DNA from: Escherichia coli
GTDB lineage: Bacteria > Pseudomonadota > Gammaproteobacteria > Enterobacterales > Enterobacteriaceae
NCBI RefSeq assembly: GCF_044324875.1
Contig: NZ_CP172185.1
Strand: one strand, 5' to 3'
DNA: 64,000 nucleotides
Shown one piece after another: positions 1 through 9,444 of this stretch. Positions within the stretch are counted from its first letter, which is position 1; every line of letters begins with the position of its first letter. A model generated the notes under the pieces. That model did not search any database, was not told the origin of the DNA, and was given only the letters and a program-made list of their open reading frames with translations. Both the position numbers and the translations under genes were made by a program.

Positions 1-14
1 ACGTTCAGACAGAG

Positions 15-281
15 ATGCCATCTAGGTACTGTCAGGCAGACGAAGAGTGGATTCAGCAGCAGTTACAGGGGCTACCACCGTCACTGAGACGGAAGGTCGC
101 CCTGAAATATGCGGAGGTATACGAAATCACTTTTGACGCTGAGCCTGTTTCATTCCGCAAGGAGAACAGAGCAAGGCACGAAGCAAACACAAGGCTCCGC
201 TTGTTTGTGAGAAATCAGGGCAGAGCTTTACAGGGGTATGCAACTCAGCCGCCCCTGGCAGGAACGCAATCGCGCTCCTGA
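15..281 (+). CDS. Hypothetical phage protein, possibly the 3' part of a gene starting upstream of the window
   Basis: ORF in frame with the window edge (no stop in the first codons); no recognisable motif. Confidence 0.3.
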   Translation: MPSRYCQADEEWIQQQLQGLPPSLRRKVALKYAEVYEITFDAEPVSFRKENRARHEANTRLRLFVRNQGRALQGYATQPPLAGTQSRS

Positions 282-539
282 TTGGTACCGGGCTTAAAGG
301 TGTCCGGTGGCTGATTGAAAATGGTAAAAATATTTAGACGTCTATATGTCTGGATGTATTTACCACCCCCTAAATGTTTATGGGGGAAAGGGGGCGGTGT
401 TGATCTTTTAGCGCGAAGCGCTGGAACAGGCTTTTCCAAGAAGACGGGTACATAGGTTAGGTAGATCTCTGTAAAGGGGAAATACCAGAAGATGTGCGGA
501 CGCCTAGACGTCCAGATGTAAATGTTCAGAGGTGATTTT

Positions 540-1142
540 ATGGTTAACAGTTTTGATGGTGAAAAATGGCTTCCGGTTCCTGTTGCTCCGTATGGTGATG
601 CTTACCTCGTTAGCTCGGCGGGACGCATCCGTGGGGTTAATCGAATTGCTGAATCGGAATTTTTTATTCGCCAAATTCGTGGCGTGTTCCTCAAGGGAAG
701 AGTGCGCCGGGATGGATATAAAACCGTTAACCTGAGCTACAAACGTAATCGCCAAACTTTTGCCGTACACCGTCTGGTAGCGCTGGCTTTTTGCAGCAAC
801 CCTTACAACCACCCTGAAGTGAACCATAAGGACGGCAACAAGCTGAATAACCATGCATCCAATCTGGAGTGGGTTAGCCATAGCGAAAACATTCAGCATT
901 CTATTCACACCGGGCTGAATAATTCTCAGGGGGCGAACAACAAACAATTTAAGGGCCTGATTGTCGCCACAAATATTGCGACCAGGGAAGAGCAAACCTT
1001 TTGCGGGAAAAAGGCGCTAATTAGTGCCGGGTTTGATCACGGTAGTGTTTATGCTGTTATTGCTGGAAGAACAAAGTCTCATCGCGGTCACCATTTCAGG
1101 CGCCTCCCGCTGAACCATGGGGAGGCAGCACAATGCAGCTGA
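540..1142 (+). CDS. HNH homing endonuclease (NUMOD4/HNH type)
   Basis: Motif HPEVNHKDGNKLNNHASNLEWVSHSEN; SD GAGGTGA upstream of ATG 540 (ORF track 522..1142). Confidence 0.8.
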   Translation: MVNSFDGEKWLPVPVAPYGDAYLVSSAGRIRGVNRIAESEFFIRQIRGVFLKGRVRRDGYKTVNLSYKRNRQTFAVHRLVALAFCSNPYNHPEVNHKDGNKLNNHASNLEWVSHSENIQHSIHTGLNNSQGANNKQFKGLIVATNIATREEQTFCGKKALISAGFDHGSVYAVIAGRTKSHRGHHFRRLPLNHGEAAQCS

Positions 1143-2791
1143 CAATCACGCCGAATTTTGCACAGGAGCGAGCGCTAAACATGTTGCGCCGTGACTGGAA
1201 GGCAAACGACACCTTCATGGTTTACTCGCCAACAGGTAGCGGTAAAACGGGTCTGGCAGCCTTCATAGTTGCTGGTTTTGTCAGCCGTGGTATGCGCGTT
1301 CTGTTCTGTGTTCCGTACACCATCCTGATTGGTCAGACGGCTAATCGGTTCGTGCAGTATGGTTTACCTGGAGATGAAATCGGTTATATCTGGGCGGATC
1401 ACCCTAACTACGATCCGGACCGGAAAATTCAGATTGCCAGCGCTGACACGCTTATTCGTCGTGTTTTTCCTGAAAATATCGATCTGCTGATTATCGACGA
1501 AGCGCACCTGCGTAAAAAACGCATCCTGAAGGATATCGAACGTCTGCGCGGCAAAGGCGTAAAGGTGATTGGCCTGTCGGGTACTCCGTTTTCTCCGTTC
1601 CTGGGCAAATACTATGACCGACTGATTAAGCCGACCACCATCGGCGAGTTAATCCAGCGTGGCGATCTGAGTAAATACGAATTTTACGCGCCAACTAAGC
1701 CGGATCTGAAAGGTGTTAAAACCACATCTTCGCTTGAGTACGGCCGCGATTACAACGAAACACAGCTGGCTGAAATCATGTGCGGCTCTACGCTGGTGGG
1801 CGACATCGTACAGAACTGGCTGGAGAATGGTCGGGATCTACCTACCATCGCTTTCTGCGTCAACGTAGCTCATGCCAATTATCTGACAATCCAGTTTAAC
1901 CTGGCGGGTGTTAACGCTGAGGTAATGACCGCCGACACTCCGGTAGATGAGCGCCAGACCATCATTCACCGCTTTGAAACCGGTGCAACGAAAATCATCG
2001 TTAGTGTGGGCGTTCTGGTAGCCGGATTCGATAGTGACGTTCGTTGCATCATCTACGCCAGACCAACAAAAAGCGAAATTCGCTGGTTGCAGGCACTCGG
2101 GCGTGGACTTCGCACCGCACCGGGTAAAGAGTCCTGCCTTATCTTCGATCACAGCGGCACCGTGCACCGTCTGGGTTATCCGGATTCAATCGAGTACGAC
2201 GATCTTCCCGGTAAGTCTGACGGCATGGAGGAAAGCACGCGCCGCGCAGTTGAGGAACGGGCCGAAAAATTGCCACATGAATGCCCTCAATGCCACTACA
2301 TGAAGCCAGCTGGCGTCTATGTTTGCCCGAAATGTGGACACAAGCCGCTGCGAGGTGAAGACGTTGATACTGACACTAGCCGCAAACTTAATAAGCTGGG
2401 TAAAAATCAGCATCAGTCCACGAAGGCAGAGAAACAGGCCTGGTGGAGTCAGATCAAATTTTATCAGCGCCAGCGTGCCTCACTGGGGCGTCCAGTCAGT
2501 GATGGATGGTGCGCTCACACTTTCAGGGAGAAATTCGGTGAATGGCCTGATGGGTTGAGTAGTTTCCCGATGGAAATAAGCCCAGAGGTAAGTAACTACA
2601 TCAGACACAAGCTGATCCGGTTTGCTAAAGGTCGTGAACGGACACGGAGGATGACGAAAAACTCATCCGAAGTGCTTTCTCTGCCACTGGTTGTTGGTGG
2701 CCGGTATGTTCCACCGGAAGAAAGTGAGGCTTGGCACATTATGCAGGCAAAGCAACAATTCCAGAAAAATATAAACAGTCTGAGTCAGTAA
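1133..2791 (+). CDS. SF2 DEAD/DEAH-box helicase with C-terminal zinc ribbon (phage replication helicase)
   Basis: Walker A SPTGSGKT, motif II IIDEAH, C-terminal CPQCHY...CPKCGH; RBS GGGGAGG before ATG. Confidence 0.85.
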   Translation: MQLTITPNFAQERALNMLRRDWKANDTFMVYSPTGSGKTGLAAFIVAGFVSRGMRVLFCVPYTILIGQTANRFVQYGLPGDEIGYIWADHPNYDPDRKIQIASADTLIRRVFPENIDLLIIDEAHLRKKRILKDIERLRGKGVKVIGLSGTPFSPFLGKYYDRLIKPTTIGELIQRGDLSKYEFYAPTKPDLKGVKTTSSLEYGRDYNETQLAEIMCGSTLVGDIVQNWLENGRDLPTIAFCVNVAHANYLTIQFNLAGVNAEVMTADTPVDERQTIIHRFETGATKIIVSVGVLVAGFDSDVRCIIYARPTKSEIRWLQALGRGLRTAPGKESCLIFDHSGTVHRLGYPDSIEYDDLPGKSDGMEESTRRAVEERAEKLPHECPQCHYMKPAGVYVCPKCGHKPLRGEDVDTDTSRKLNKLGKNQHQSTKAEKQAWWSQIKFYQRQRASLGRPVSDGWCAHTFREKFGEWPDGLSSFPMEISPEVSNYIRHKLIRFAKGRERTRRMTKNSSEVLSLPLVVGGRYVPPEESEAWHIMQAKQQFQKNINSLSQ

Positions 2792-2792
2792 G

Positions 2793-3761
2793 ATGAAAAC
2801 AGCAGATGCAGCGAAAGGCCGTTGGCCTGAAATATTAGAGCACTTCGGTCTGCCGCCGATAACCGGAAAAAATCACTTTAAGGGTGAATGCCCGGTATGC
2901 GGTGCACGTGGCAAGTTCCGAATTGACGACCGCGACGGTGCAGGAACGTGGATCTGTGTATGTGGTAGTGGCGATGGTATGAAACTTGTCACCCTGACAC
3001 AGGCGAAGCCATTTAACGAGATTTGTACCGAAATAGACCGCCTGATCGGTAATGATTACCAACGGGTTAAAATCCCGGTAACCAGCAGCGCCACCAGCTT
3101 ACGCAAACGGGTATTGAGCAAGTTTTCAAAACTGGAGGCACTGCGTGGTACATCCGGCGCCGCGTATCTTAATTCTCGTGGAATATTCAGTCTTCCTGCT
3201 GAGGCGATCAGGTTCAATGCCAGGCAGAGACACAACGGGAGTGTGTTCCAGTCTCTTTATTCACTTGCTACGGACGATAAAGGGGAGCTGTGCTATCTGC
3301 ATCAGACCCTGCTTGATGGTGATAAAAAAGCAGATATCGGTAGCAGTGCAAAGCGCCTCAAATCCCTGCAGGAAGATAACTATCTGGATCACGCTCGTTC
3401 TGTAGCTATCCGCATGTTTCCTGTCGCCAGCACTCTGGGTATCGCCGAAGGCATCGAAACAGCGCTGTCAGCGCACCAGATTTATAACGTGAACACCTGG
3501 GCAACCATTAACAGCGGCTTTATGAAAAAGTTCCGTGTACCAGCTGGTGTTCTGCATCTGATTATTTTTGCTGACCGTGACGAGAACAGCGCCACCGGGC
3601 TGGCTGCGGCTTGCGAATGTGCTCATGCCAATCTGATGGCAAAGAATGACCTGCAGCGCGTGAGCGTGTACTGGCCGGATCACGATGATTTCAACAATAT
3701 GCTCATGAACGGTGATCAGGTTCGGGAGCTGGTTTTCCATAAGAAAAAGGCGGTTGCGTAA
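2793..3761 (+). CDS. DNA primase-like protein (N-terminal zinc ribbon + Toprim region)
   Basis: CPVCGARGKFRIDDRDGAGTWICVCG zinc-binding motif; acidic Toprim-like FADRDEN; immediately follows helicase. Confidence 0.7.
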   Translation: MKTADAAKGRWPEILEHFGLPPITGKNHFKGECPVCGARGKFRIDDRDGAGTWICVCGSGDGMKLVTLTQAKPFNEICTEIDRLIGNDYQRVKIPVTSSATSLRKRVLSKFSKLEALRGTSGAAYLNSRGIFSLPAEAIRFNARQRHNGSVFQSLYSLATDDKGELCYLHQTLLDGDKKADIGSSAKRLKSLQEDNYLDHARSVAIRMFPVASTLGIAEGIETALSAHQIYNVNTWATINSGFMKKFRVPAGVLHLIIFADRDENSATGLAAACECAHANLMAKNDLQRVSVYWPDHDDFNNMLMNGDQVRELVFHKKKAVA

Positions 3762-4621
3762 TGCGTACTGATAACAACGAACATAAAGTACTATTCACCA
3801 TCCCGACGGCAGCGTACAGCTCCGCCCTCGCAAACATCAAGCCCCTGCCAGAGCAACGGAGAATCACCGGGCATAAGCAGACTGATGCTTATCTTTGGGT
3901 GCTGGAGGTTATCCGTCTGAACGAACCCGCACATCTGGATGCTGCTGAGGCTGCGCTGGTGAAAATTAAAATTTCCCCAAAAGAGGCTCAGGAACGCTAT
4001 TCGCGTTATCTGCTGGCGAATGGTTACGAACCTTTCCAGGTTGCGTTCGGCATCATCGGCATGGATAACCCGGCACAGGCAATCAGTATCGCCCGGGAGA
4101 ATATCAAAAAAGCAGCATCAGTCAGGGCTACGTTTGGTAGCTATGAAGCAGCACTCGAAGATGTGGAAGCCGAGCGAGTGATCAAGTCTTCCCAGAAATT
4201 TATCGACGATCATCTCTGGGGCTGGACTGCAGCCGAGAAGAAAGCGGGCAGAATTGACGGCATCCGTATGAATGAAATTGATGATCAGCGTCGTGCATAT
4301 GTTGATGGCTATCGTGATGTACTGCCAGAGCCTCATACATTGTCAGACGTAGTTCGTGAGTTTGTTTACTGGGACTGGCTCTACAGTGTTCGCCACACTG
4401 CAACTAAAGAACAGGGCGATGAGTTTGGTTACTTTGAGCATCACGAATCGGTATATGACCGCGAGCGCTACCTTGAAAAATTGCTGATGACCATCAAACC
4501 GGTGACACGGGCTGAAGCCGTGGAGGTGTGTCGTTGGTTTTTGGCAAGCGGAAAGGGCGAATATATGAAAGACAATAGCGCTGCGGTCATACTCAATCTG
4601 GTTGGGGAGTGTGAGCAATGA
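3761..4621 (+). CDS. Hypothetical protein (286 aa) in nin-like region
   Basis: Uninterrupted ORF, start overlaps primase stop; no motif recognised. Confidence 0.55.
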   Translation: MRTDNNEHKVLFTIPTAAYSSALANIKPLPEQRRITGHKQTDAYLWVLEVIRLNEPAHLDAAEAALVKIKISPKEAQERYSRYLLANGYEPFQVAFGIIGMDNPAQAISIARENIKKAASVRATFGSYEAALEDVEAERVIKSSQKFIDDHLWGWTAAEKKAGRIDGIRMNEIDDQRRAYVDGYRDVLPEPHTLSDVVREFVYWDWLYSVRHTATKEQGDEFGYFEHHESVYDRERYLEKLLMTIKPVTRAEAVEVCRWFLASGKGEYMKDNSAAVILNLVGECEQ

Positions 4622-4739
4622 AGCAGGGCTGGAAAGTTTGAAAAACTGGTGAAGGAGTTTACTGCGTGATGGCTGAATTTTTTCTCTATTCTGCCACGCT
4701 TTTTTGCAACAGGTGTGACTGGGTGGAAGGAGGGGACAG

Positions 4740-5111
4740 ATGCGTCTGGAATTTGTTTTGCCTTACCCGCCGCCGGTGAACACTTACTGGCACCGTCGTG
4801 GTGGTAAGTATTTTGTATCAAAAGCGGGGGAACGTTATCGTCGTGATGTCAGGCTTATTGTTCGCCAGCAGCAACTGAGATTAAGGCTGACCGGAAGACT
4901 GGGTATAAAAATCATCGCAGACCCGCCAGACAACCGCCGCCGTGACCTGGACAACATACTGAAAGTACCGCTGGATGCGCTGACCCATGCGGGGCTGCTT
5001 ATTGATGACGAACAGTTTGATGAAATTTATATCGTGCGTGGCGTGTCAGTACCTGACGGGCGTCTGGGAGTGAAGATTTACGAAATTACAGGTGGTAACA
5101 ATGGCGCGTGA
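4740..5111 (+). CDS. rusA: Holliday junction resolvase RusA
   Basis: 123 aa; RusA-like sequence with conserved acidic residues ([16 protein letters not shown]); RBS GGAAGGAGGGGA upstream. Confidence 0.85.
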
Positions 5112-5526
5112 TATTCAGCAGGTTATGGAGCGATGGGGGGCATGGGTGGCGAATAACCACGAAGACGTGGAATGGTCATCCATTGCCGCCGGATTCAAGG
5201 GGCTGATACCGTCAAAAGTAAAATCGCGACCGCAGTGTTCCGATGATGACGCGATGATTATCTGTGGTTGTATGGCTCAACTGAACCGGAACAACAGTGA
5301 TTTGCATGAATTGCTGGTTGATTACTACGTGTGTGGGATGACGCTGATGAAGTTAGCAAGGAAACATGGATGTTCTGATACGCATATTGGAAAGCGTTTG
5401 CAAAAAGCTGAAGGAGTGGTTGATGGCATGTTGATGATGCTGGGAGTAAGACTTGAGATGGATCGGTATGTGAGCGTAAATTATTCGATGTGCCGTAAAA
5501 CTCCGTCCTTCAGGGCAGGGATATAA
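5101..5526 (+). CDS. Late-gene antiterminator Q-like protein
   Basis: About 141 aa, directly upstream of the tRNA/lysis region; N-terminus [15 protein letters not shown] resembles the short Q type of Stx-family lambdoid phages as recalled; Cys-rich. Confidence 0.6.
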
Positions 5527-5536
5527 GGCGTACAGG

Positions 5537-5566
5537 ATAAATAAAAGAACGGGCGCAAAGCGCCCA
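5537..5566 (-). terminator. Rho-independent terminator for the opposite-strand porin gene
   Basis: Hairpin GGGCGCAAAGCGCCC followed on the minus strand by a T-rich run. Confidence 0.55.
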
Positions 5567-5709
5567 AGTATAAACAACAAAAAACGGTAATAAATAACAG
5601 AAAGTCCGTTGGAAAAGTTAAGTACTGTCCAACGTTTTGCAGTGGCATGAGGGCACCACTTTATATGTCAGAAAAGTTTCACTCTCCCGACATATTCTTA
5701 CAAAACAAA

Positions 5710-6813
5710 TCAGAACTGATAAGTCAAACCAACAGCGACAATATCATCGGTTAATACATCAGTTCTTTCAGTGAATTGATTCTTATCAAGCAGGTTGATT
5801 TTATAGTCTACGTATGTAGACATATTTTTGTTGAAGTAATAAGCAGCACCGACTTCAATGAATTTTTCAATGTATCCGTCATTATGTTTTTCAGGGATAC
5901 CAGTTTTGGTGGAAAGGTCTTTGGCTTTCGACTGGATATAAGCAAGAGACGGGCGCAAACCAAAGTCGAACTGATACTGTGCAACTACAGCGAAATCTTC
6001 AGTTTTATTGGCTACACCGTTGTAGCCGCCGGGCGAGTACTTGATTGCGCGGGTATTACGTGTTTCACCATAAGTGGCTGCCAGGTACAGATTATTCGCG
6101 TCATATTTTACGCTGGTAGCCCACTGTTCAGCTTTTTTACCTTTACCAAAAGTCGTCGCTTCCTGTGCATTGGTGCGATCGGCTGCACCATATGCAGCTA
6201 CAAAACCAAAGCCTTCATATTCATAACTGACAGAGCCGCCAACACCGTCGCCGTTTGAAGTGCCTGCATTGTCACGCTCATTTTTACCCAGATACTGAAC
6301 CGCAAAGTTCAGTCCATCAACCAGACCGAAGAAGTCGGTATTACGGTAAGTGGCAACACCACCTACACGACCCACGAAGAAGTTATCCCCGTTAACAGAA
6401 CCAGGCCCAAATTCAGGGAGGACATCAGTATAGCTTAATGCGTCATACACCACGCCATAGTTACGACCATAATCCAGAGAGCCAATATTTTCTAGTTTCA
6501 GGCCAGCGTATGCCAGACGGGTTTTGTCTCCTGCAGAGCCATCTTTTTCTGCCTTGTTGCCTTTGAATTCATATTCCCATTGACCAAAACCAGTTAACTG
6601 ATTGTTGATTTGGGTTTCACCTTTGAATCCAAGACGGGCATAAGTTCCATCACCTTCTTCTTTGGCGTTAGAAGAAAAGTAATGTTTACCCACTACTTTG
6701 CCATATAAATCCAGTTTATTACTGTTTTTATTATATATTTCTGCTGCATTTGCAGACATTGCCAGAAATACTGATGCTGCTACAGCAGAAAGTGCCACTG
6801 TTAAATTTTTCAT
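5710..6813 (-). CDS. Outer membrane porin (OmpC/NmpC family) moron
   Basis: Signal peptide [29 protein letters not shown], porin-type beta-strand composition, C-terminal aromatic residue; same position and orientation as nmpC in DLP12-type prophages. Confidence 0.85.
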
Positions 6814-7411
6814 TTTTTATCCTCTGGTGGGAGTTAATTGGACGACAAAATGCTATCAGGATGAAAATTTAATTTCTGTGTATAATGTATACAAGGAAAA
6901 TTAAGGAGTCCGATTCTTTATATGTGACCACCATCACAAAATAAGAAGTCATGCAAGCTAATAAATAGATGGCTATCTTTCACTCAAAAAATTAAGATCA
7001 ATCTTTTTTATTAGAAGTGCTAAATATATTTAATTATTTGGGGTTGTGAGTTATTTATATAACCTTAATAAAGACATTACTTTTGAAGAAAAATACGTGC
7101 ATAGAAGAATGCATAATCTTTAATTACATCTTGCCAAGCGTCGCAACAATCCAGAGATTGTATGTGGGGTGAATCATGCAGCATGCAGGGTATGAACAAA
7201 CACTTTACGATCGTAAAAGTATGCATATCATGGTAAGAGTGGTTCCTACGCCACACAACTTAAACCCGCAGCCAGGCGGTTTTTTACATCGAAAATCTGC
7301 ACCGGACATTAAGCTCTTTGGCGGACCAGATAAGAGGTGCGCTTAGTTGGGTTTGTCGGGCTTTCTCTGAGATTTGCGGTATTAATCCCGTAACGTTATT
7401 ATGCTGCTCGA

Positions 7412-7487
7412 GGCCCTTTAGCTCAGTGGTGAGAGCGAGCGACTCATAATCGCAAGGGCGCTGGTTCAAATTCAGCAAGGGCCACCA
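7412..7487 (+). tRNA. tRNA with anticodon CAU, ileX/ileZ-like (tRNA-Ile2 reading AUA, or Met)
   Basis: Cloverleaf folds by hand: acceptor GGCCCTT/AAGGGCC, D-arm GCTC..GAGC, anticodon loop CTCATAA, T-arm GCTGG-TTCAAAT-TCAGC, 3' CCA; close to recalled E. coli ileX. Confidence 0.85.
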
Positions 7488-7488
7488 A

Positions 7489-7565
7489 CCGCTACTAGCT
7501 CATCAGGAAAGAGCGTCAACCCTTTAAGTTGAGTGCGCTAGGTTCGATTCCCCGCTGGCGGTCCA
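7489..7565 (+). tRNA. tRNA-like element, probably degenerate (arg-tRNA-like architecture)
   Basis: Acceptor 6/7 bp, good D-arm and perfect anticodon stem, canonical T-loop TTCGATT, but T-stem has 2 mismatches and loop CCTTTAA lacks U33; ends CCA. Confidence 0.35.
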
Positions 7566-7980
7566 GCGCCGACTTACCTCAGTCGGCAGAACAGTTTAGT
7601 TGTAACCATCAGGCCACCACTTCAATTCCGGTAGTCGGCACTAAATTTCCAAGCTCGTGCTCACGGCCTGCTTCATATCCGCGCCAGGTCCGTCGCGATT
7701 AAACCACAGGGCTTTTCAGGAGGGGCCACAGAGAGCGTCACACTGACCATTCCCTGTGGCTTGTGCTGAGATCCGGTCAGTGAAATTGTGCAAAGGGAAT
7801 CTTCGGGAGCTTTGGGCAGAATGTCAGTTATTGATGTTGACATCCTCCACACCCTGAAGGTCGGGGTTTTACGGCGCACTGGATAAAATACCTGAACAAA
7901 CAGCCTCTTCGTGCGGCTTTTTTATAACGAGATTCTGACTTGCTGCCGTCCGTAATGTCGGATGGCGGAGGTGAGGGACT

Positions 7981-8253
7981 ATGAGAATGGACGAACGATA
8001 CAGTAACGCTGCATACGGCAGCGCAGGACTTGTTGCGTTCTTTGCCAGCCTGTCACTGCAGGATTGGGGATTTATTATCGGCGTGGCGTTCAGTATCATT
8101 CTTGGCGTTCTTACTTATCGCCTTAACAAACGGGAGCAGGAAAAACGAACCCGCATATTGCTCGAAATTCTGGAACGAACTAATGCCGGTAATGTTCCGG
8201 CTACGGCACATGCTGTGGCTGAGATTGCGAAAAAGGCACCAAAAGAAATATGA
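7981..8253 (+). CDS. Holin (two predicted transmembrane segments; dual-start MRM motif)
   Basis: 90 aa, hydrophobic stretches LVAFFASLSL and FIIGVAFSIILGVLTY, charged C-terminus; SD GGAGGTGAGGG; immediately upstream of lysis genes. Confidence 0.6.
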   Translation: MRMDERYSNAAYGSAGLVAFFASLSLQDWGFIIGVAFSIILGVLTYRLNKREQEKRTRILLEILERTNAGNVPATAHAVAEIAKKAPKEI

Positions 8254-8409
8254 CGAATATCCCGGGAGTGAGGGGATAATATACCTTTTAACAAAATCCG
8301 GGAACATGAAACGCCCGGAACGTTTCATGAGGCATGCCCCGTGGGGAGCAGGGCATAACTGTGCGGAATAGCTTTCATTGTGATATCAATAATCACGGTA
8401 TTCAAAATA

Positions 8410-8787
8410 TTACGGGCCTGTGGGATCAGGTTGTTTTTTGTCTGATTCCAGAGGGAAGGGACGCTGTTTCGGTTCTCTGAACTTTAGTGATAATGAATTG
8501 AAAATCCTCATTTTTTGCTGCCATGCATAATGTCTGTCCCATGAACAGGGGGGGCTCAATTCTTCATTCACCCATGCGTTAATATCTTGTTTCAGGTGTT
8601 GAAGCATACGGGGTGTTAATGCACTCATAATAATATCCAGCGTTTTATGCGAGAGTTTACCGTAAGGGTCTGCAAGGATGCTGCTCGTTGCTTCGTTATT
8701 ATCCACCATAAGTGGAAGTAGCGCTGATTTAACTTTTTCTGTCATTAGTTGCAAAAATCTACTGCGCAAATTTTCTTTACTGTTCAT
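8410..8787 (-). CDS. Hypothetical protein (125 aa) on opposite strand between holin and endolysin
   Basis: Clean ORF in an otherwise plus-strand late operon; no recognised domain. Confidence 0.45.
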   Translation of the reverse strand: MNSKENLRSRFLQLMTEKVKSALLPLMVDNNEATSSILADPYGKLSHKTLDIIMSALTPRMLQHLKQDINAWVNEELSPPCSWDRHYAWQQKMRIFNSLSLKFREPKQRPFPLESDKKQPDPTGP

Positions 8788-8910
8788 TTCTGAAGCCTCA
8801 TCTGTTGTCGTTTGGTTTTCCTGAACGGGTATGTTTATGAGACATGCTGGTACTGGATTATATACCTGATATATCCAGGATTATAAACCTTTAGATCCTG
8901 ATAAATATAC

Positions 8911-9444
8911 ATGAACGCAAAAATCAGATACGGCCTGTCGGCTGCCGTTCTGGCGCTGATTGGTGCTGGCGCATCTGCTCCTCAGATACTTGATCAGTTT
9001 CTGGACGAAAAAGAGGGTAACCACACAACGGCATACCGCGATGGGTCCGGCATCTGGACCATCTGTCGGGGTGCCACGATGGTGGATGGAAAACCCGTTT
9101 TTCCCGGAATGAAGCTGTCGAAGGAAAAATGCGACCAGGTTAACGCTATTGAACGTGATAAGGCACTGGCATGGGTGGAGCGCAATATTAAAGTACCTCT
9201 GACCGAACCACAGAAAGCGGGTATTGCGTCATTCTGTCCCTATAACATTGGCCCCGGTAAGTGTTTCCCGTCGACGTTTTATAAGCGGCTTAATGCCGGT
9301 GATCGAAAAGGCGCCTGCGAGGCGATTCGCTGGTGGATAAAGGATGGTGGGCGTGACTGCCGTATCCGTTCAAATAACTGCTATGGACAGGTTATTCGTC
9401 GTGACCAGGAAAGCGCATTAGCCTGTTGGGGGATAGATCAGTGA
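8911..9444 (+). CDS. Endolysin, lysozyme with N-terminal signal-anchor-release (SAR) domain
   Basis: 177 aa; N-terminal hydrophobic [16 protein letters not shown]-x8-D-x5-T catalytic spacing ([16 protein letters not shown]). Confidence 0.85.

Follow-up and report, generated by a model that had tools for sequence, protein, structure and literature searches.

The beginning (positions 1-4621) of a 64,000-nt stretch of the Escherichia coli contig NZ_CP172185.1 (assembly GCF_044324875.1; the whole stretch is called the window below) very probably carries the DNA-replication block, part of the early right (pR) operon, of a lambda-like prophage, in which a helicase and a primase of the Fels-1/Eru1-like type replace lambda O and P and into which a gene for an HNH endonuclease has been inserted. 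The module is of an already described type whose mechanism is uncharacterised, and the rare homing-endonuclease insertion is what sets this locus apart from its relatives. Four open reading frames (ORFs) on the forward strand, coding for the HNH protein, a superfamily 2 (SF2) helicase, a primase and a protein of 286 aa, overlap or abut at their ends and form one tightly coupled operon (Table 1). An earlier, sequence-only reading had placed these ORFs and guessed their domains, and both were confirmed by the ORF list and by domain scans, with the HNH start amended from position 522 to 540. Gene content, orthology, presence or absence and conservation were established directly, and the position of an origin, the target of the HNH protein and any activity are predicted from them.

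The window begins right after cro, as judged from its relative in E. coli LH50-c. The LH50-c prophage is 97.5% identical in DNA to window positions 1-5600 and is ordered integrase ... cI (LexA family), cro, 97-aa ORF, HNH, helicase, primase, 286-aa gene, rusA, Q, porin, tRNAs, lysis and terminase genes. The order cI, cro, ORF97, a variable slot, helicase, primase, 286-aa gene and Q is common to LH50-c, the Stx2f phage phi467 and Salmonella Fels-1. Proteins of the window are 95% (helicase), 100% (primase) and 96% (286-aa protein) identical to those of phi467, and 84%, 95% and 82% identical, respectively, to those of Fels-1 (STM0899-STM0902). Both elements differ from the window in that the slot holds a 122-aa gene (phrog_1347) and not HNH, and in that no rusA stands between the 286-aa gene and Q. 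Close relatives of the helicase-primase DNA were found in approximately 94-101 of 5426 complete E. coli genomes. A further 160 loci were retrieved from IMG/VR by way of the helicase, with ITPNFAQ, which is encoded by the most conserved part of the helicase gene, chosen as the pattern for the database scan; they were tabulated as 124 unique modules. No match of the window proteins to O- or P-like proteins was detected in PHROGs, NCBIfam or Pfam, nor was an iteron array of the kind expected of a lambda O/P-type module.

The domain content of the two central proteins fits a replicative role. The helicase has the motifs GSGKT, DEAH, SGT and QALGRGLR, and by Pfam scan is composed of ResIII/DEAD and Helicase_C domains with a CxxC..CxxC zinc ribbon (residues ~379-404), followed by a C-terminal domain; its best solved relative is RadD. 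The primase matches Zn_Ribbon_Prim (E=7e-14) and Toprim_3 (E=5e-14) in addition to DUF7146, and its translation displays CPVC..CVC, AEGIETA and ADRDE (Toprim E..DxD). With a zinc ribbon and a Toprim domain that retains its acidic residues, this protein is of the DnaG/T7-gp4 type and is predicted to synthesise primers. Catalytic motifs are intact in both proteins. The Zn_Ribbon_Prim plus Toprim organisation is shared with T7 gp4 and P4 alpha, and a similarity to P4 primase had been noted by the annotators of Fels-1. By contrast to T7 gp4 and P4 alpha, the primase of the window is a separate polypeptide, and the helicase that accompanies it belongs to SF2 (RadD/UvsW-like, of monomeric type) and not to the hexameric SF4 or SF3 enzymes.

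Orthology leads to the same reading. 'EHEC phage replication units' (Eru; EHEC, enterohaemorrhagic E. coli) have been described as replacing lambda O/P, and Eru1 of phage TL-2011c is made up of three proteins, namely an SF2 DEAH helicase (506 aa), a Toprim protein (323 aa) and a DUF1367 protein (Llarena et al. 2021, PMC8044961). The helicase of the window is 67% identical to Eru1A over 502 aa and its 322-aa primase 58% identical to Eru1B over 320 aa. As in the window, the Eru1 genes lie downstream of a LexA-family cI and cro in the absence of O/P; TL-2011c also has an unannotated homologue (54% identity) of the small gene ORF88/97 that lies 5' of the helicase gene, and a GGTTAGGTAGATC core with a G-tract upstream. 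The two units differ in their third gene, which is NinB/DUF1367 in Eru1 and the 286-aa orphan in the window (tblastn with TL-2011c NinB found nothing in window positions 1-9000, the part searched). They further differ in the slot, which holds gp29 (125 aa) in TL-2011c and HNH in the window, in the TL-2011c helicase being short of the last ~46 residues, and in the site repeats of TL-2011c being TTAGTTGC-type. As the identity falls below the >80% DNA identity by which 'Eru1 phages' were defined (PMC8044961), the module is Eru1-like and not a strict Eru1. Stx phages of highly virulent EHEC, O103:H25 and O104:H4 among them, carry Eru1-like units (PMC8044961), as does Salmonella Fels-1. Nothing is known of the replication proteins of Eru phages according to the authors of a later study (Fagerlund et al. 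2022, PMC8951638), and our literature search likewise found no paper on the origin or biochemistry of Eru-type modules.

Complete phage genomes provide a further line of evidence. In Yersinia phage YP3 (37 kb, waste water) the helicase and primase are the sole annotated replication genes, and in both YP3 and Escherichia phage Fostie (inlet-water sediment), each deposited as complete, the order is helicase-primase-Q, and both the slot gene and the 286-aa gene are missing. The orthology to Eru1A and Eru1B, together with YP3 having no other annotated replication gene, favours replication, which from position, domain content and the absence of alternatives is by far the best reading of the module. 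Thus, the replacement of O/P by a helicase-primase pair, as claimed in the sequence-only reading, is supported by synteny with Fels-1, phi467 and LH50-c, by Eru1 and by YP3. Orthology to phage replication proteins reached, for these two genes, named but uncharacterised counterparts, and for the 286-aa protein none. Upon loss of the repressor, rightward transcription would express the translationally coupled genes, the helicase and primase would open and prime the phage DNA at an origin, and synthesis would then be carried out by host DNA polymerase III.

The combination of HNH, SF2 helicase and Toprim proteins can also be read as prophage cargo that serves in anti-phage defence, in the manner of Gabija, Hachiman or Nhi; a nuclease-helicase defence pair had been mentioned in the sequence-only reading, with replication as the simpler explanation. 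The helicase has weak PADLOC matches to PbeA, type IV restriction enzymes, DpdF and Cas3, it matches SauUSI-like 7clg and restriction-type ResIII domains, and it was labelled 'type I restriction enzyme EcoKI subunit R' by the depositors of phi467. The PADLOC matches, however, span only ~100 residues of generic Helicase_C at 16-52 bits. No match was obtained in that database for the primase or the 286-aa protein, and the HNH protein matched only 'homing endonuclease' models. Across all seven proteins analysed with PADLOC-DB v2, which includes Gabija, Hachiman, Dpd, Pbe and type IV restriction, the matches were generic, and no component matched a defence-system protein over its full length. In addition, the genes are translationally coupled in the O/P position of a pR operon, the same helicase and primase are all that is annotated for replication in YP3, and the primase differs from GajA in having a zinc ribbon of the primase type and in lacking an ATPase domain. 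Since HNH is missing from ~94% of modules, it is not an obligate partner of the other genes. The defence reading was therefore rejected as most improbable. This outcome is a warning for annotation: helicase/Toprim/HNH clusters of this kind are not to be read as defence systems or restriction subunits.

The first gene of the operon was identified as a homing endonuclease of the I-HmuI type. The HNH protein matches NUMOD4 (E=9e-9), HNH_3 (E=2e-8) and, in its C-terminal region, the I-HmuI NUMOD-like domain (E=0.03) of Pfam, and it aligns to I-HmuI of SPO1 (1u3e) at E=1e-17 with the catalytic motif HKDGNKxNN..NLxW conserved. A start at 522 would give a product of 206 aa; the ATG at 540 is preceded by a GAGGTG Shine-Dalgarno sequence, and the NCBI Prokaryotic Genome Annotation Pipeline (PGAP) calls a 200-aa HNH product in a genome with identical DNA over window positions 314-1132. 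For these two reasons position 540 is the more likely start. By contrast to I-HmuI, which is intron-encoded, the HNH gene is free-standing and coupled to the downstream helicase gene, its stop overlapping the helicase start by 10 nt.

The distribution of the gene is that of a mobile element. HNH was found in 6 of the 5426 complete E. coli genomes (~6 per 100 that bear the module), always in the same slot and as two alleles that are 88% identical in DNA. Among the first 75 IMG/VR loci, the slot was empty in 51, held the 122-aa gene (S122) in 20 and held the HNH of the window in 4. The spacer of empty slots is near-constant in length, ~431 bp in 47 unique loci. Locus L012 represents nearly the same phage as the window (helicase 99%, rusA 99% and Q 100% identical) with an empty slot, and the slot of L018 is likewise empty compared to the window. 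When the window was aligned to L012 (alignment A3), ~230 bp of spacer 3' of the conserved core were missing from the window. Within the missing segment lie a hairpin, GGCTGGCAGCC..GGCCACCAGCC, and a leader ORF of 19 codons (MKTTSQNYYLIS...), the stop codon of which overlaps the helicase ATG. The HNH ORF terminates in the last codons of this leader ORF (..AQCS*), and because it is fused to them, translational coupling to the helicase is kept. HNH thus replaced ~230 bp of ancestral spacer, hairpin and leader ORF included. In empty-slot and S122-type relatives the hairpin and a leader ORF of 12-19 codons (MKTTSQNYYLI...), located within the ~110 bp upstream of L012:3501, are highly conserved and may constitute a translational-coupling or attenuation device; both are retained in Fels-1 and phi467.

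In four other lineages, with helicases only ~68% identical to that of the window, this junction is taken by relatives of the HNH protein (51, 43, 38 and 37% identity), and each of these HNH genes overlaps the helicase start. Insertions that recur at the border of the best-conserved portion of the helicase gene are typical of a free-standing homing endonuclease, and presence or absence at one locus beside a highly conserved essential gene is a property of such enzymes in phages. With the I-HmuI-like motif and NUMOD modules on the one hand, and presence/absence with replaced flanks on the other, the HNH gene is selfish and mobile, and its product is the free-standing homing endonuclease named in the sequence-only reading. 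Its target site is predicted by position: the enzyme most likely attacks alleles without HNH, by a nick or a cut close to the invariant start of the helicase gene, and would spread by repair.

The slot is also used by other genes. The alternative occupant S122/gp29 (122-125 aa, phrog_1347; 40% identity between phi467 and TL-2011c) is found at L002:5531-5899, L003:5388-5756 and L008:2664-3041. Its D...E-[VI]-D-[KR] pattern reads like the putative core of a PD-(D/E)xK or Vsr-type nuclease; NCBIfam gave no match to this protein. The slots of distant modules (L119, L122, L149 and L158; L107, L112 and L146) hold still other genes, among them one for a protein of 276-291 aa (MRMIINKEKAE..HRAFVNWKPARAV...) and one for a protein of 144-152 aa (..TELYGLITDSCDWKYGRYVATRAE..) that could be an initiator-like DNA-binding candidate. 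The analysis thereby identifies the slot upstream of the helicase as a hot-spot for homing endonucleases and other cargo.

Upstream of HNH, the repeats described in the sequence-only reading proved to be real and non-random. In all 64 kb of the window the motif TAGACGTC is confined to 335-344 (a palindrome, hence counted on both strands) and 505-512; the expectation from shuffles is 0.85 per whole window, which makes two sites within 170 bp notable. The first copy lies within the 44-bp imperfect palindrome listed in Table 1. The CCCCC (366-370)...GGGGG (382-386) hairpin of the same reading is present in the DNA, and did no better than shuffled sequence (z=+0.57). No multi-copy iterons, AT-rich tract or excess of promoter- or terminator-like sites were detected in the intergenic region, a scan with Rfam returned tRNAs only, and no convincing match to a sigma-54 or sigma-70 promoter was seen by eye at the core or the TGGCAG element.

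Relatives of the window carry other sites at these positions. Fels-1, phi467, YP3, Fostie and L012 have TGTACTAG and CTAGTACA where the window has TAGACGTC, the position of site 1 being taken by a different palindrome, TGTACTAG..AGTAC. The two sites are 170 bp apart in both the window and phi467, and 163-166 bp apart in Fels-1, YP3, Fostie and L012. The mini-hairpin at 411-421 is replaced in phi467 and Fels-1 by GTGCGAAGCAC, a two-sided change that preserves the stem, and was not found in empty-slot relatives. A scan of IMG/VR with GACGNNTAGACGTCCA returned 77 stretches, 11 of them in ORF88-helicase spacers and 7 of these in HNH-less modules. The site-2 element was located at the same position in HNH-less modules of another clade (L181, L216, L218, L226 and L239), and some phages pair a GTAC-type site 1 with a GACGTC-type site 2. 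As they are present in seven HNH-less modules, the TAGACGTC-type sites are native to another module clade.

These sites bear on a further explanation of the HNH gene, namely that it is a working part of replication which nicks the TAGACGTC sites near the origin and so gives the SF2 helicase its entry. I-HmuI is a strand-specific nicking enzyme, and the HNH protein is similar to it; the conserved core is bracketed by the two TAGACGTC sites, the only ones in the window, and among E. coli genomes the left patch with site 1 occurs only alongside HNH. The slot protein of relatives, S122/gp29, is perhaps itself nuclease-like (putative, from a D..E-x-D-K motif). Several findings nevertheless make this explanation very unlikely. 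TAGACGTCCA-type sites are at the same positions in the seven HNH-less modules, and the slot is empty in most modules, complete deposited phage genomes among them. Moreover, the near-palindromic form of the TAGACGTC-type sites fits a dimeric binder and not a monomeric I-HmuI-like enzyme, and the locus of the closest HNH relative (L106, 51% identity) has no GACGTC anywhere.

Homing would account for the sites as well. Compared to phi467, the window has two divergent patches, at 314-405 and 476-1130, on either side of a conserved island; the core is ~6% diverged from phi467 and the left flank ~1%. Most simply, an HNH-bearing donor of another clade would have supplied the entire 314-1130 segment, its flanks co-converted during homing, and the universally conserved core would show as an island within it. 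Repair after homing would thus explain why this whole segment, TAGACGTC-type sites included, looks imported from another clade. Two further ideas about the sites were tried and rejected. Co-variation of site type with slot gene (S122 binding TGTACTAG and HNH binding TAGACGTC) was ruled out, since the empty-slot YP3, Fostie and L012 carry TGTACTAG and the seven HNH-less modules carry TAGACGTCCA. A role as cI/Cro operators was dismissed because the motif is missing from the cI-cro region of LH50-c and phi467. In Fostie, TAGTAC/GTACTA is clustered, with 11 copies in 10.6 kb, near repressor genes (L010 2168-2226 and 3042-3057); the clustering was not observed in phi467 or LH50-c and may be a regulatory link or a coincidence.

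The spacer between ORF88/97 and the helicase has a common architecture across three clades, which reads site 1, a G-rich tract on the transcribed-sense strand, TGATC, GGC-N4-SCCAA, core and site 2. The core consensus is CA..T..TAGATCWCTRT with GATC or AGATCT; the core, the G-runs and GGC-N4-SCCAA are conserved across the three clades, and the G-runs form invariant columns (alignment A5). The G-runs of relatives are longer than the tract of the window, where GC skew reaches its maximum of 0.33 over 301-500. The core, GGTTARGTAGATC, is located at a fixed distance 5' of the helicase gene in most module loci, including TL-2011c with proteins of 54-67% identity. We propose that this spacer, with its site pair, G-rich tract and GATC-containing core GGTTAGGTAGATCTCTGT, is the origin or control region of the module. 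A homologue of ORF88/97 (40-99% identity) lies 5' of the helicase in nearly all 124 unique loci; the 3' half of the gene is co-inherited with the helicase and the 5' half is mosaic, and no match for it was found in Pfam, PDB or NCBIfam. ORF88/97 is proposed as the third conserved component. The core of the module is then the small basic protein ORF88/97, the helicase, the separate primase and a structured intergenic region of ~240-430 bp, and the analysis supplies this conserved minimal unit together with a concrete, testable candidate origin.

A bolder idea, which we regard as doubtful, is that the ORF88-helicase spacer is an origin that needs no classical initiator, shared by an entire class of temperate-phage replicons to which Fels-1, the Eru1 Stx phages and the present prophage belong; it would work through an R-loop, with the machinery assembling there. 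The R-loop would arise beside the GATC-containing core when the G-rich non-template tract is transcribed rightward, and that core would be the assembly point for the SF2 helicase, the Toprim primase and ORF88, the small basic protein. The flanking site pairs would be clade-specific determinants and the 286-aa protein an accessory factor of new fold. Action of the G-tract through an R-loop is speculation.

Several points weigh against the replication reading. An SF2 enzyme is unusual as a replicative helicase, no initiator or origin has been mapped, and no experiment on any protein of this module type was found in the searched literature. The absence of an AT-rich tract and multi-copy iterons leaves the origin assignment weak. 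The HNH insertion took out the conserved hairpin and leader ORF, and the window joins type-B (TAGACGTC) sites to clade-1 proteins, such that if these sites are specificity determinants the prophage could be impaired.

A rival explanation holds that the module is a damaged copy, which lost spacer elements in the HNH replacement, was left with mismatched sites and no longer replicates autonomously. Compared to L012 and phi467, ~230 bp of highly conserved spacer (site 2, the hairpin GGCTGGCAGCC..GGCCACCAGCC and the leader ORF) are indeed gone, and the site type of the window is unlike that of all close relatives. Yet all ORFs are intact with coupling to the helicase preserved, the related ECCNB12-2 prophage has a complete lambda-like structural module, and an HNH gene occupies this position in other lineages too. 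The arrangement with HNH was seen in 6 E. coli genomes and 3 IMG/VR contigs, as two alleles that differ in DNA as described above, which argues that it has persisted and diverged. Damage of this extent is thus unlikely, and a replication block with a homing-endonuclease insertion is the reading we prefer.

The last gene of the operon codes for the 286-aa protein, which the sequence-only reading had listed as an unknown ahead of rusA and Q. Both genes do follow it, and no match to the protein was detected in Pfam, NCBIfam, PADLOC or PDB. It gave a confident predicted model that is all-alpha, with no match to a fold or family. At 50% identity its family falls into ~130 clusters, for which 'Fels-1 prophage protein' and 'HTH domain-containing' (HTH, helix-turn-helix) are the only names. 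Many distant relatives have an extra N-terminal sigma-70-region-4/HTH_23 domain and the N-termini of three were read by eye as ParB-like or Bro-N domains, none of which is present in the copy of the window. From these N-terminal domains the protein is probably a DNA-associated factor. As a widespread, confidently folded orphan family, the STM0902-like proteins merit follow-up.

An essential role for this protein was also considered, in which it would, for example, bind the origin as an initiator or load the helicase, as the counterpart of lambda O or P. Its gene is translationally coupled to that of the primase by a 1-nt overlap and is present in most clade-1 modules; a 52%-identical relative comes right after a P4-alpha-type primase-helicase and SSB and precedes Q, and the N-terminal domains of distant relatives likewise suit a DNA-binding role. 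However, the gene is missing from YP3, Fostie, TL-2011c and ~10 clade-1 loci, in which the primase is followed directly by Q or nin genes, and from nearly all clade-2 modules. The window copy is without a DNA-binding domain, and by sequence and fold the protein is unlike any initiator or loader. We consider an essential role improbable. Because it is absent from functional relatives, the 286-aa gene is, as judged by its distribution, a dispensable accessory gene at the boundary between the replication and nin regions.

Table 1. Features of the replication block and its surroundings (window coordinates).
Feature	Position	Strand	Basis or remark
ORF88/97 (phrog_852), 3' part of 97-aa gene	15-281	+	cut by window edge
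Site 1, 44-bp imperfect palindrome with TAGACGTCTA at 335-344	322-365	.	DNA fold z=-3.6
Short G-rich tract GGGGGAAAGGGGGCGGTG followed by TGATC	382-405	+	sequence
Mini-hairpin GCGCGAAGCGC	411-421	+	sequence, fold
Conserved non-coding core CTTTTCCAAGAAGACGGGTACATAGGTTAGGTAGATCTCTGT, includes AGATCT/GATC	431-472	+	candidate origin or control element
Site 2 GCGGACGCCTAGACGTCCAGATG, second copy of the TAGACGTC motif	496-518	+	21 nt 5' of HNH start
Free-standing HNH homing endonuclease, 200 aa	540-1142	+	NUMOD4 + HNH_3 + I-HmuI-like C-terminal region
SF2 DEAH-box helicase, 552 aa	1133-2791	+	phrog_16 E=4e-104; RadD 6jde E=3e-20
DnaG/T7-gp4-type primase, 322 aa	2793-3761	+	phrog_510 E=2e-130; zinc ribbon + DUF7146 + Toprim
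286-aa accessory protein, phrog_6204, 'Fels-1 prophage protein' STM0902 family	3761-4621	+	
rusA (4740-5111) and antiterminator Q (5092-5526)	4740-5526	+	end of early right operon

Outside the module, the spacer that separates the 286-aa gene from rusA contains a 52-bp piece (4635-4686) with 94-98% identity to many Stx2a phages and to ~900 E. coli genomes that are otherwise without the module; this piece looks like a short conserved linker or a recombination joint of lambdoid mosaics. The rusA gene is intact in the window, frameshifted in the LH50-c prophage (L001 12735-13107) and absent from the ECCNB12-2 relative, which also has an IS5-family insertion near the porin gene. In the window, an OmpC/NmpC-like porin gene of 367 aa (5710-6813, reverse strand; 'porin' by PGAP in relatives) lies between Q and the tRNA/lysis region, a typical position for a lambdoid moron (compare Lc/NmpC). 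Two phage tRNAs, Met(CAT) and Lys(TTT), were predicted by ARAGORN at 7412-7565 on the forward strand, the second of which is scored weakly by Rfam (31 bits). At this position PGAP calls tRNA-Ile and tRNA-Arg in relatives, plus tRNA-Thr in LH50-c; the second tRNA varies among relatives, and the CAT tRNA may be of the Ile2 type.

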